Source: Patescibacteria group bacterium (lineage in GTDB: Bacteria; Patescibacteriota; UBA1384; XYA2-FULL-43-10; 1-14-0-10-43-13). Taken from it: DNA of 64,000 nt. Shown here piece by piece: positions 36,791 to 41,504 of the stretch (its first letter is position 1; every line of letters begins with the position of its first letter). The DNA lies in NCBI GenBank assembly GCA_041649155.1, contig JBAZNP010000001.1, forward strand, positions 494,564-558,563, in the 5' to 3' direction. Made by a program: the position numbers and the translations under genes. Under the pieces are notes generated by a model. It saw only the letters and a list, made by a program, of their open reading frames with translations. It did not search any database and was not told the DNA's origin.

Positions 36791-37684
36791 TCAAAACTCA
36801 AAATATGTTTCGAGTCGACTGGCGGTAACGGCGCATCGGAGCTTCTTTTTGGCTCTTATCTCCAGCTGTCTTATGCGTTCACGTGTTACTTTGAATTCTT
36901 CCCCGACTTCTTCCAGTGTAGAGGTCATTTCGTCTTTTAGCCCGAATCGTTTTTCGATAATCAGTTTTTCTTGGGGACTAAGCCACAACATCAGTTCATT
37001 GAGGACTTTTGTGTCTTCGCATTTGAACATTTCTGTCATAGGGTCTACTGACCTTGGATCTATGAGTCGTTCTTGAAGCGACCTGTTATTGTCGTCTTCA
37101 ACTCGTTCGTCCAGCGAAACGAGTGCCTCTGACGCCTTGATCAAACGCAGTACCTTCTCTCCTGACAAATGAGTTAACTTGCATAGTTCCTCCATAGTTG
37201 GTTTCTTTCCATGCTCATCGGCAAAGGAGGATTCTATTTCGTGAAGTTTTCTGATGGATTGAATCACATAGCTTGGCAACCTGATAGCGCGTTCCTGACG
37301 TTCGATTGCCCTTGTGACAGCTTGTCGAATCCAGTTAGTTGCATAGGTCGAGAACCTGAATCCTTTGTTTGGATTAAAGCTCTCAACTGCTTTGAAAAGA
37401 CCAATATTGCCTTCCTGAATCAGATCAGGCAATGGCACTCCGGATCGTGAGTAAACTTTGGCCACGCTCACCACGAGCTTTAGGTTTGACTCGATTAACT
37501 TGTTCCTTGCTGTTTCGTTTCCCGACTGGGCTTTTCTTGCCAGATCACGTTCTTCTTCAACCCCTAAGAGGGGCCATCGGCCGATCTGAGCAAGATACAT
37601 ATCCATCGAATCACCTACACCTGAAACTCCCGGCATTTCCTCTTCTGTTTCTGGTTCTGGCAACTCAAGTAAACAACTATCCAT
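36791..37684 (-). CDS. RNA polymerase sigma-70 family factor (RpoD/SigA-like, compact)
   Basis: Region 2 (YLAQIGRWPLL, TYATNWIRQAVTRAI), region 3, region 4 (TLEEVGEEFKVTRERIRQLE). Start at 37684 has RBS GGAGGG; ORF open to 37717. Confidence 0.85.
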   Translation of the reverse strand: MDSCLLELPEPETEEEMPGVSGVGDSMDMYLAQIGRWPLLGVEEERDLARKAQSGNETARNKLIESNLKLVVSVAKVYSRSGVPLPDLIQEGNIGLFKAVESFNPNKGFRFSTYATNWIRQAVTRAIERQERAIRLPSYVIQSIRKLHEIESSFADEHGKKPTMEELCKLTHLSGEKVLRLIKASEALVSLDERVEDDNNRSLQERLIDPRSVDPMTEMFKCEDTKVLNELMLWLSPQEKLIIEKRFGLKDEMTSTLEEVGEEFKVTRERIRQLEIRAKKKLRCAVTASRLETYFEF

Positions 37685-37862
37685 TATTGCTAACCCTCCT
37701 CTTGGATGCATTTTCATACTTGTTTCTTCTATCAGATATGTGTCCGGTGATCATATTTATACACTTTTGTCATTAATTTGTCAATATTTAAAAATTTGCT
37801 ACTAGCCTAATTTTTTTCTTAATCTATTGAATTTGAAAGGTGAGCAAGGGTAGAATGAATTT

Positions 37863-39893
37863 ATGGAAAATGAAATATCAAAAAGTGAGACGAAGGTTAG
37901 GATCGAAAAGCTTAGAAAAGTTATCGATGAGCTTCGATATAAGTATCATGTGCTAAATGATCCGACGGTTACTGACATGGATTACGATTCCTTGATGAAG
38001 GAATTAGTTGAACTTGAGCGAAAATATCCGGAATTTTTAGATTCCAGTTCTCCTTCACAAAAAATTGGCGGTGAGCCGGTAAAAAAATTTAAAACTGTCA
38101 AACATAAACACAAGATGCTTTCTTTGAACGATGCATTTGATGATGGAGAATTGAAAAACTGGTTTGATCGTGCAGCAAGGCTTGTCGGAGAAGAGCCGAT
38201 TTTGAAGTCAGGTTTTTATTGCGAATTAAAAATGGATGGTTTAGCGGTTAGCTTAATCTATAAAAATGGAGAATTAGACTACGCTCTTACGCGCGGTGAT
38301 GGAAAAGTGGGGGAAGATGTCACTTCAAACATAAAAACTATAAAAAGTATCCCTCTAAAACTAAGGCAGGAATCTAAATATTTCAATCTAGCAAAAGATA
38401 AAATTATTGAAATTCGTGGCGAGGTTTATATGCCAACATTGTCCTTCGAGGCATTGAACAAAGAAAGAGCAGAAAAGGGCGAGTCGCTATTCGCAAATCC
38501 AAGAAATGCAGCTGCAGGTTCAATTCGTCAGCTTGATCCGAAAATTTCCGCTTCCCGTAATCTAGATTTTATGGGCTATGCCCTGATTGGAATGGATACG
38601 GAAACACATGAAGAGGAGCATGAAATAATCTCTGATTTAGGATTGCCGAGCAATGGCCATAACGAATATTGTCGAAGTCTGGATCAAATTGCAAAACTAT
38701 GGCACGATTGGGAGAAAATCAGGCCAAAACTTCCTTATCAGATTGATGGCATGGTTATAAATATTGATAATGAAAAATTATTCCGAAAGCTCGGCGTGGT
38801 AGGTAAAGCCCCACGAGGTGCAATTGCTTTTAAGTGGCCGGCGGAAGAGGTTACAACCGTAATCGAAGAAATTGAAGTAAGAGTTGGGCGTACTGGTGTT
38901 TTGACTCCAACAGCACATTTTAAGCCTGTTGTAGTGGCTGGCTCGACTGTTTCAAGAGCAACGCTTCATAATCAGGATGAGATTGATAAAAAAGATATCC
39001 GTATTGGCGATACAGTAGTGATCAGAAAAGCGGGAGATATTATTCCCGAGGTGGTTAAATCGATTTCAGAATTACGAACTGGCAAGGAGAAAAAGTTTAA
39101 AATGCCAACGACCTGTCCGATGTGCGGTGGAAAAGTGGAGAGGAAAGAAGGCGAGGCCGCTTTCAGGTGTCTTAATAAGAAATGTTTTGCTGTTGAATTT
39201 CGTTCTCTTGAACATTTTGTTTCCAAAACTGCTTTTGATATTGATGGACTCGGTCCTAAGATATTGGAAAAATTATTGACCGAAGGTTTGATTCACGATG
39301 CTTCTGACTTGTTCACTCTGAAAATGGGGGACTTGGAACCGCTTGAGCGTTTTGCCGAAAAGTCGGCCCAGAATGCGATTGACTCAATCGAACAATCAAA
39401 AAGCATCACTTTAGCCCGATTTATTTATGCTTTGGGAATTAGAAATGTTGGAGAGCAAACAGCTATTGATTTAGCCGAAAAATATCACACCATAGAAAAA
39501 TTATTAGAGGCGAGTTCTGAAGATCTAAACTCCATTTATGACGTCGGGCCTGTCGTGGCAAAGAGCATTTACGAGTATTTTAAAGATGAGAAAAAAATTC
39601 ATTTTGTGAGAAATCTACTGGGAAATGGAGTTAAAATACAAAAGGTTGAGAAGAAAGAGGTTAAGACTGGTGTTTTAGACAAAACTTTTGTTTTTACCGG
39701 TGGGTTGGATTCAATGACGAGAGATGACGCCAAGGCGTTGGTGCGAAAATTTAGCGGCAACGTTTCAGAATCGGTAAGTACTAAAGTTGATTATGTGGTT
39801 GCTGGCGAAAGTACCGGCTCCAAATATGAGAAGGCGAAACGATTAGGGGTAAAGATTGTTTCAGAGGAAGAATTTTTGAAATTAATTAATTAA
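37863..39893 (+). CDS. ligA: NAD-dependent DNA ligase LigA
   Basis: KxDG adenylation motif (KMDGLAVSL), OB fold, Zn finger CPMCGGKV...C..KC, HhH, BRCT. Confidence 0.9.
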
Positions 39894-39898
39894 GTTTG

Positions 39899-39960
39899 TT
39901 CTTACGATTTTGGACGATCGGGGGATAATCGTAAGAATGGTTTGGCATTTTTGTTTTTTA
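39899..39960 (+). terminator. putative terminator after ligA
   Basis: Hairpin TTCTTACGATT...AATCGTAAGAA followed by a T-rich tract. Confidence 0.5.
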
Positions 39961-40051
39961 ATATCTCCTAGTTTTGGCACGGTCTATATAAGTAAAACGA
40001 CTTCCAGGGCGGAAGTCGTCGGCTTTAATGCATGGATTGTACTACGTGGTG

Positions 40052-40423
40052 TTATGCAGCGGGCGGGAGAGGATCAATAAGATCGGATATTGAAGCAACG
40101 GCTTCTTCGACAGTGGCATAGATGTCGAAAGTTTTGTTGAGGTCAGTATAATTGAAAACGTTGAGAATTCGTGGAGAGGAGCAAGCGAGGGCTAGATTCC
40201 CGTCTTGCTCTCTAATACGCCTCAAGCTACTGAGCATAACGCCAAGACCGGTGGTGTCTAAGTAATCGACCTTGTTTAAATCGACTATCAGATTGACCCC
40301 GTCTTCTTTCATGGTATCCATGATCTGCTGTTTAAGCTGTGGGGAAGTATAGATATCCACTTCGCCTTCAAGGCTTATAACGGGGAAGATACTTGCGGTG
40401 CTGACCTCCATTTTGAAAGCCAT
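40052..40423 (-). CDS. STAS-domain anti-sigma-factor antagonist paralog 1 (SpoIIAA-like; Thr at phospho-site position)
   Basis: VDLNKVDYLDTTGLGVMLS is the STAS signature. RBS AAGGAGGTG. Confidence 0.75.
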   Translation of the reverse strand: MAFKMEVSTASIFPVISLEGEVDIYTSPQLKQQIMDTMKEDGVNLIVDLNKVDYLDTTGLGVMLSSLRRIREQDGNLALACSSPRILNVFNYTDLNKTFDIYATVEEAVASISDLIDPLPPAA

Positions 40424-40449
40424 TTTTTTCACCTCCTTTTCAATTCCAT

Positions 40450-40821
40450 TCAAGTTGAGAAGATAGCGCAGTAGGCATCTTGCAAAGATCCATAAACATT
40501 CATGGTCTTTTGGGCTCTAGCTATTTCAAATATCCTTTCTATCTCTGGTGAGATAATAACATGGAATTCTACTTTGGCATTTAATACAGCCAATCTATTT
40601 CTGAGCCAATTTAACGATCCAAAACCAGCTACATCCATGTAACTAATTTCGCCCAAGTCTAAGATTAGCTTAGAGTTATTGGTTAGATACTCCTGGTTGC
40701 TTTCGAGATAATCGCGAACAGTCAGTTTGAAGTGATCTCTGGTCTCAAAATCCAGTATTCCCTTCACATTAATGACATAACCATCTTCTTTGTAGTGATG
40801 CCACTTGATTTCGATATCCAA
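40450..40821 (-). CDS. STAS-domain protein paralog 2 (non-phosphorylatable: MDVAGFG)
   Basis: STAS fold pattern LILDLGEISYMDVAGFGSL. Confidence 0.65.
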   Translation of the reverse strand: MDIEIKWHHYKEDGYVINVKGILDFETRDHFKLTVRDYLESNQEYLTNNSKLILDLGEISYMDVAGFGSLNWLRNRLAVLNAKVEFHVIISPEIERIFEIARAQKTMNVYGSLQDAYCAIFST

Positions 40822-40894
40822 TTTTCATCCTCCATGAAACATATTTGTCCCATGTGTTTATAACATAAATTAAATATTCTGTCTATACTAATAA

Positions 40895-40925
40895 GAAAAT
40901 GGCCTCTGCACTCAGAGGCCATTAC
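40895..40925 (-). terminator. rho-independent terminator
   Basis: AATGGCCTCTG-agtgc-AGAGGCCATT followed on the minus strand by TTCTTATT. Confidence 0.65.
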
Positions 40926-40952
40926 GGGTCATGATTGATAACCAATAAGCTA

Positions 40953-41309
40953 TCAATCGGGTGCTTGGTCAGCTTCTTCGACTGAAGGAAAAATTTTGAA
41001 GAAACGAAGCATACCTGTTATTTCTAGAAAATCTTTTATTCGTGAGCTAAGTCCAAATAATCGCAAGTCTCCGTCGCAGTCCCTAAGTCTTTTAAGCTGA
41101 CTGACTATCTCTTGCAAGACAATATTGTCTATAAAAACGATATTGGTCATGTCGATGATCACAATCGTTTTCCCTAGACCTAATTGTTCCGAGATTACGT
41201 CTTTAAACTTAGACGCATATTCCTTTTTTACTTCTCCTTGATCATTCTGCTCGGGCAAGATAACTGCATTGCCGTTCGGTGTTTCTTGGACTTGTATTCC
41301 TTTAAACAT
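40953..41309 (-). CDS. STAS-domain protein paralog 3 (Asn at phospho-site position)
   Basis: IVIIDMTNIVFIDNIVLQEIVSQL. ORF open to the TTG at 41345; ATG 41309 has an upstream AGGAGG. Confidence 0.6.
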   Translation of the reverse strand: MFKGIQVQETPNGNAVILPEQNDQGEVKKEYASKFKDVISEQLGLGKTIVIIDMTNIVFIDNIVLQEIVSQLKRLRDCDGDLRLFGLSSRIKDFLEITGMLRFFKIFPSVEEADQAPD

Positions 41310-41504
41310 TTCCCCTTTTATTCCTCCTGTGAGTTCAGTCTGCAATTACTTTTAGAGTACCATAGCCTGGCGACAGAAAAAAATAACAATGTAAAATAAT
41401 AAATTCAGATTACTAAATTTGATATCAAGTGAACCGAAAATATTATACGAGGCTTAAAACATAAAGATGTTGAACTCAAGCTCTAGAGGTGCTAATATTT
41501 AAAC

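Follow-up and report, generated by a model that had tools for sequence, protein, structure and literature searches.

Within the window analysed here, a stretch of 64,000 nucleotides (nt) lying at about positions 494426-558425 of a 603,007-bp public contig from a Berkelbacteria-like member of the Patescibacteria (genome size roughly 0.6-0.8 Mb), three successive minus-strand open reading frames (ORFs) occupy positions 40052-41345. The proteins that they encode, here called P1, P2 and P3, are SpoIIAA-like proteins composed of a STAS domain only, and P1 alone of the trio passes the tests for an anti-sigma-factor antagonist of the SpoIIAA/RsbV type. The genes form two transcription units, no partner kinase or phosphatase is encoded in the 80.5 kb around them, and a relative from the same clade has an RsbW-type kinase gene that is unlinked to its STAS-like gene. 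We propose, with a confidence that is evenly balanced, that the trio supplies the antagonists of a dispersed partner-switching system, with the kinase gene in another part of the genome; it resembles a detached portion of regulatory machinery that is already known, as in mycobacteria, more than something new.

Three tandem STAS genes, one of them canonical

The match of the three proteins to the Pfam STAS family (PF01740) is far beyond chance, because all of them exceed its gathering score of 22.6 bits: P1 with 71.1 bits (E 7e-20; it also scores 38.8 bits against STAS_2), P3 with 46.6 bits (E 3e-12) and P2 with 40.8 bits (E 2e-10). The original prediction for this DNA, of three tandem minus-strand genes each encoding a SpoIIAA-like STAS protein of about 120 amino acids (aa), is borne out by the ORFs and by these matches. 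Against the NCBIfam model for anti-sigma-factor antagonists of the SpoIIAA/RsbV type (TIGR00377, cut-off 53.45 bits), P1 scores 89 bits and is above the cut-off, P3 falls just under it (51.9 bits) and P2 is clearly under it (36.5 bits). P1 also aligns with RsbV (6M36), keeping the D-[ST]-x-G-L-G motif (E 2.4e-14). Its AlphaFold model, with a predicted local distance difference test score (pLDDT) of 83, has the STAS fold, and the top Foldseek matches to it, with template-modelling (TM) scores of 0.84-0.92, are SpoIIAA (1TH8_B) and RsbV (6M36), both taken from complexes with a kinase. The model of P3 (pLDDT 94.6) is a complete STAS fold whose nearest structures are SpoIIAA (1TID_B) and TM1442, with TM scores of about 0.8; RsbS, MlaB and SLC26 rank lower in the structural match lists for P1 and P3 alike. 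P2, for its part, aligns over its full length with TM1442 in HMMER (E 3e-6). Only P1 merits the name of canonical anti-sigma-factor antagonist.

The residues at the phosphorylation site also tell the three proteins apart. In HMMER alignments, Thr57 of P1 (motif DYLDTTGLG) falls on Ser56 of RsbV, Val64 of P2 (YMDVAGFG) on Ser58 of SpoIIAA and on the Ser of TM1442, and Asn62 of P3 (FIDNIVLQ) on the Ser of TM1442 and TM1081; P3 also lacks the GLG downstream of the phospho-serine position. The motifs had been given correctly at the outset (DYLDTTGLG, MDVAGFG, FIDNIVL), and the alignments uphold the claim that a phosphorylatable residue is kept solely by the first paralog. This column was then counted in 124 single-domain matches, drawn from the 150 listed for P3 together with P1, P2, P3 and the STAS protein of a related genome (L014, described below): it holds Ser in 114, Thr in 4 and neither in 6, and P2 and P3 account for four of the last six entries, since each of them was counted two times. 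Among the single-domain matches listed, loss of the phospho-site is uncommon (about 2%), yet it occurs. As 118 of the 124 have Ser or Thr at this position, the retention of both Thr57 and GLG by P1 fits continued recognition by a kinase.

A recent tandem duplication is ruled out as the origin of the trio by the low pairwise scores (34 bits for P1 and P3, 25 bits for P1 and P2, about 0 bits for P2 and P3) and by the fact that each paralog is nearer to outside STAS proteins than to its own neighbours. A word-indexed search of 5.8 billion proteins with each paralog returned nothing beyond the query's own cluster, and an exhaustive HMMER search of 1.84 billion representatives with P3 returned 1665 STAS proteins and no orthologue, the top single-domain matches having about 36% identity and about 54 bits. 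Many of the top homologues of P3 among the matches listed are tandem fusions of two or three STAS domains, which makes it plausible that STAS domains act together. Horizontal acquisition was also considered, and it may have played a part, given that the slot holding the trio varies among relatives; the guanine-plus-cytosine (GC) content of the trio, 0.39-0.405, is no anomaly in a window that ranges from 0.34 to 0.44, and no mobile-element genes adjoin the trio among the neighbouring gene calls.

The starts of the three genes were chosen by the ribosome-binding sites read from the sequence, and they equal the gene calls on public contigs: AGGAGG stands before P1, with the ATG at 40423 following 8 nt on, GGAGGA precedes the TTG of P2 at 40821, and GGAGG precedes the ATG of P3 at 41309. 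Because terminator-like hairpins follow P3 and P1, and because only 26 nt separate the stop codon of P2 from the start of P1, the genes fall into two units, P3 alone and P2-P1, the latter converging on the 3' end of ligA (Table 1). The trio corresponds to the NCBI entries MFA4996045-47, named 'STAS domain-containing protein [Patescibacteria group bacterium]', and across independent ENA, Logan, JGI and NCBI assemblies P1 and P3 are identical and P2 is 99-100% identical.

Table 1. Positions in the window of the STAS genes, the hairpins that follow them and two nearby genes.
Feature	Coordinates	Strand	Description
P3	41309..40953	minus	118 aa, ATG start at 41309; STAS-only; own transcription unit
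Terminator-like hairpin past P3	40898..40923	minus	11-bp stem, T-rich tail, intrinsic type
P2	40821..40450	minus	123 aa, TTG start; STAS-only; first in P2-P1 unit
P1	40423..40052	minus	123 aa, ATG start; canonical SpoIIAA/RsbV-type anti-sigma-factor antagonist
Terminator-like hairpin past P1	39996..40020	minus	11-bp stem, T-rich tail; faces ligA 3' end
ligA	37863..39893	plus	Between the trio and the sigma gene
Sigma-70 gene	36791..37717	minus	308 aa; Pfam regions 1.2, 2, 3 and 4; context only

The ligA-gatC interval in related genomes

When the GTDB species representatives were scanned with LigA, 80 Patescibacteria loci were obtained, the nearest LigA proteins being 61-77% identical and several being labelled Berkelbacteria. 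The order of the genes around ligA is kept: ctpA, a pilin-like gene, lemA, a membrane protein gene, htpX, ligA, gatC, gatA, a peptidyl-prolyl isomerase (PPIase) gene, an unknown gene, gatB and htrA. What varies among the relatives is the gene content of the gap between ligA and gatC (39894-41504 in the window), which here holds the three STAS genes. This slot is empty in two relatives (L015, L017), carries a plus-strand PHP-like phosphoesterase gene in three (L010, L012, L037) and a membrane protein gene in another (L009). In L014 it is occupied by a single minus-strand STAS gene (Pfam E 1.9e-13) with Ser at the phospho-site (RYLDSEG), and no kinase is encoded within 8 kb on either side of it. 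Being the closest of the trio to the L014 gene, P1 has probably been in the slot for longer than the other two.

A further relative, L011 (JBAYJO010000001.1; LigA 68% identical), has in the slot one minus-strand ORF of 125 aa that is weakly STAS-like (Pfam E 0.087). It also encodes on the plus strand, at 17276-17707, a protein of 143 aa that contains N, G1 and G2 boxes and matches HATPase_c_2 (PF13581) with 35.7 bits, the cut-off being 27.4; the gene is flanked by htrA and prmC and is 6.8 kb away from the ORF in the slot. RsbW-type kinases therefore exist in the clade, away from the STAS genes, and the lack of linkage between this kinase and the STAS-like gene of the same genome favours an ordinary but dispersed system.

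Partners of the trio and the explanations that compete

The search for partners covered contig positions 485549-566035, that is, the window with 8.9 kb upstream and 7.6 kb downstream (80.5 kb). Pfam scans of about 58 gene-like ORFs of the window found no HATPase_c, HATPase_c_2, SpoIIE or PP2C domain, and a regular-expression scan for an N box plus a G box found none among the window ORFs of 100-260 aa. The phosphatase families PF07228, PF13672 and PF00481 are absent from the window and its flanks, and precomputed Pfam annotation shows neither a kinase nor a phosphatase in the flanks past both window ends. Searches with phmmer and jackhmmer, using the L011 kinase and RsbW and SpoIIAB sequences as queries, gave nothing in the window ORFs and 88 loci besides the L011 kinase itself. 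The absence of a kinase/anti-sigma protein and of a PP2C phosphatase, first claimed for the window, thus holds for the whole 80.5 kb, and a cognate kinase and phosphatase just past the window edges, which would have made this an ordinary Rsb-like module, were looked for in the two flanks and not found. The window is a housekeeping region, with genes for aminoacyl-tRNA synthetases, SecA, MreBC, FtsEX, GatCAB, LigA, RF1, S2, Ts, UMP kinase and RRF, and the trio locus misses every trait of a canonical Rsb/SpoIIA operon: the kinase, the phosphatase and the group-3 sigma factor.

If the trio supplies the antagonists of a dispersed system, the genes for the kinase and the phosphatase would both lie in other parts of the genome. 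In its unphosphorylated state, P1 would bind to an RsbW-type GHKL anti-sigma protein/kinase and so release the target of that kinase; phosphorylation of Thr57 by the kinase would turn P1 off, and a PP2C phosphatase would turn it on again. P2, with Val64, and P3, with Asn62, would not be switchable by phosphorylation, in the manner of natural S-to-A variants, and might serve as phosphorylation-insensitive antagonists or decoys, or as hetero-oligomer partners of P1. Their effect would then be set by the level of expression, from the separate units, or by some other input.

Several points weigh against this proposal. Neither a kinase nor a phosphatase lies in the 80.5 kb around the trio. When metagenomes were scanned with a kinase alignment built from the L011 kinase and the RsbW and SpoIIAB sequences, at least two loci were obtained, weak and unrelated, and among the matches listed none came from the 798,787-bp contig of this organism. 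The gap between htrA and prmC, which holds the kinase gene in L011, is empty here (48078-48259, 182 bp), and the STAS assignment of the ORF in the L011 slot is itself weak (Pfam E 0.087). Patescibacteria genomes are strongly reduced, and the kinase could have been lost through this reduction. Finally, the roles suggested for P2 and P3 are argued by analogy only.

There is a different explanation, which we consider rather unlikely: that the genome encodes no RsbW-type kinase, that the trio acts solely by binding some other target (a sigma factor, an enzyme, a nucleotide or a lipid) under the control of expression or of a ligand, and that Thr57 of P1 is a relic. The failure to find partners in the 80.5 kb, or a kinase on the large contig among the matches listed, agrees with it, as does the loss of the phospho-site in two of the three paralogs, set against about 2-3% of single-domain homologues, and STAS-only proteins with unknown, non-sigma outputs are known (PMC8256260). 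However, every non-canonical example in that review still has its kinase and phosphatase, P1 keeps the entire kinase-recognition motif, the clade relative L011 has a kinase, and the partner search covers about 15% of the genome. That the genome lacks both the kinase and a PPM phosphatase, and that the STAS proteins make up a phosphorylation-independent circuit in a minimal genome, seems to us improbable; such a circuit might have the RpoD-type sigma factor or a non-sigma target, with expression from the two units as its control.

Because a sigma-70 gene lies near the trio, we also considered a local sigma-control module, in which the STAS proteins act directly with this neighbouring RpoD-type sigma factor, and we give this very little credence. 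The gene is 2.3 kb off on the same strand, and at this locus both it and the expanded trio occur in this genome alone; the chlamydial Rsb system, proposed to act on the primary sigma factor, offers a loose parallel. The type of the sigma factor, its position and its distribution argue otherwise. By its family scores it is a group 1/2 housekeeping-type factor (RpoD/RpoS-like), with 250-266 bits against the RpoS/RpoD NCBIfam models and 110 bits against the SigB/F/G model (TIGR02980, cut-off 234), and NCBI names it RpoD/SigA (the NCBI protein having 297 aa, against 308 aa here). RpoD-type sigma factors are not usually held by RsbW or SpoIIAB; moreover, STAS antagonists such as SpoIIAA and RsbV normally bind the anti-sigma protein and not the sigma factor, which counts against a direct interaction. 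The original prediction gave the distance and strand of the gene rightly and placed it upstream, whereas transcription of the trio runs towards it, so that it lies downstream. It is not co-transcribed with the STAS genes, since terminators (one after P3, one after P1) and the opposite-strand ligA intervene.

The relatives speak in the same direction. No sigma homologue is encoded within 8 kb on either side of ligA at any of the 80 related loci, including L014 and L011, which have a STAS or STAS-like gene in the slot. A sigma gene between htpX and ligA occurs in this genome only, htpX being followed directly by ligA in L009 and L010, and the ORF list and Pfam show no anti-sigma gene adjoining it. 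The sigma gene is probably not part of the STAS module; the link first drawn between it and the trio is not sustained, given its RpoD/RpoS type, its separate unit past ligA and its absence from this position in the 80 relatives, and the trio is not to be read as a sigma-linked operon.

Equally hard to credit is the explanation that P2 and P3 are decaying, with their function lost and P1 the sole functional copy: although the phospho-site is gone from both, the GLG from P3 as well, both are under the TIGR00377 cut-off and similarity between them is undetectable (about 0 bits), their ORFs are intact, with good ribosome-binding sites and terminators of their own, P3 is identical and P2 99-100% identical across independent assemblies, the model of P3 is a complete STAS fold with a pLDDT of 94.6, and both are comfortably above the Pfam threshold.

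Setting, other features of the window and known systems

Gene regulation in the Patescibacteria (Candidate Phyla Radiation, CPR) is, to our knowledge, little known, and full-text literature searching found no paper that deals with STAS proteins, or with partner switching, in these bacteria. Since regulators are few in Patescibacteria genomes, three STAS proteins would make up a considerable part of the signalling capacity. Should the kinase and phosphatase genes lie elsewhere in the genome, as we propose, the trio belongs to nothing more than a dispersed Rsb-like system; should they be lacking, it would be a natural case of phosphorylation-free STAS signalling, worth biochemical study. As it stands, the result is a useful annotation point and no surprise: the setting is unexplored and the parts are familiar, separated STAS genes and phosphorylation-independent antagonists being already documented (PMC7693655).

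Some other features of the window and of the related loci deserve mention in their own right. Directly upstream of mreB lies a plus-strand ORF of 279 aa (14022-14861) that matches no Pfam or NCBIfam family and scores 19.4 bits, below threshold, against Sigma70_r4; it is made up of four internal repeats of about 60 aa, helix-turn-helix-like, each ending in W-[RKS]-[RSY], with z = 4-7 for repeat pairs against shuffled sequence, and the local GC content is slightly raised (0.435). In the interval between the PPIase gene and gatB, a plus-strand ORF of 151 aa (44234-44689) is conserved across the relatives in position and in sequence (34-49% identity); like a minus-strand ORF of 168 aa at 57986-58492 it matches no Pfam, NCBIfam or PADLOC family. 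A plus-strand ORF of 588 aa (10520-12286) is likewise outside every Pfam and NCBIfam family. A minus-strand gene for a '23S rRNA intervening sequence protein' (PF05635) is at 61920-62276, and a plus-strand HypC/HupF-like gene at 61667-61888. Directly past the end of the window, at L004 13545-18386, is a cluster that resembles a cytoplasmic [NiFe] hydrogenase, with the large subunit (PF00374), the small subunit (PF01058), an FAD/NAD-binding protein and an iron-sulfur protein, flanked by glycolysis genes. Between lemA and htpX, L011 has a minus-strand ORF of 133 aa (5177-5578) that overlaps the start of a plus-strand ORF of 371 aa (5522-6637), the latter reverse-transcriptase-like by eye alone.

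Comparison with the known STAS systems removes several candidates. The RsbS/RsbR proteins, MlaB and SLC26 share the STAS fold with the trio, but (i) a stressosome (RsbR/RsbS/RsbT) is rejected, the three proteins being single-domain, with no RsbT kinase in the window and no RsbR-type N-terminal sensor domain; (ii) MlaB is excluded by its family model (NF033618, 19.3 bits against a cut-off of 90) and by the absence of mlaFED genes nearby; and (iii) SLC26/SulP is excluded because the proteins have 118-123 aa and consist of the STAS domain alone, with no membrane transporter domain. The idea that the STAS proteins serve in nucleoside triphosphate binding or transporter regulation found no evidence, there being no transporter domain or partner and the MlaB score being so low. 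Nor is a role in anti-phage defence retained, as no PADLOC family matches P1, P2 or P3.

Like SpoIIAA and RsbV of Bacillus (TIGR00377, PF01740), the three proteins have one STAS domain, about 115-125 aa long, with a common fold, and P1 also shares the D-[ST]-x-G-L-G phospho-site motif and clears the family cut-off. The differences are that neither spoIIAB or rsbW nor genes for a PP2C phosphatase or a group-3 sigma factor adjoin the trio, that P1 has Thr where SpoIIAA and RsbV have Ser, and that P2 and P3 are without a phospho-site and under the TIGR00377 cut-off. SypA, BtrV, RbaV and HmpV are STAS-only proteins whose outputs may not be a sigma factor (PMC8256260); unlike the trio, they all keep the phospho-Ser and sit with their cognate kinase and phosphatase. 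The chlamydial Rsb system (RsbU, RsbW, RsbV1, RsbV2) resembles the trio in that the genome is reduced and encodes at least two antagonist paralogs (PMC11619594); Chlamydia, however, encodes RsbW and RsbU, neither of which was found in the 80.5 kb around the trio.

Among known systems, the mycobacterial SigF network (RsfA, RsfB, RsbW1-3), with its several antagonist paralogs, is the one whose working the trio may resemble most. The parallel has its limits: the target there is a group-3 sigma factor, whereas the only sigma gene near the trio is of the RpoD type; no kinase was found in the 80.5 kb around the trio; and the control of RsfA depends on two paired cysteines, while each of the three STAS proteins here contains a single Cys, which makes an RsfA-like redox control unlikely. 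In that network redox state governs RsfA, RsbW2 phosphorylates RsfB, the kinase gene is separate from that of the anti-sigma protein, and the S63A variant of RsfB still binds RsbW1 (PMC7693655). Phosphorylatable and phosphorylation-independent antagonists thus coexist in mycobacteria, with the kinases encoded at other loci (PMC7693655), and this is the arrangement that P1, together with P2 and P3, may reproduce in a Patescibacteria genome.

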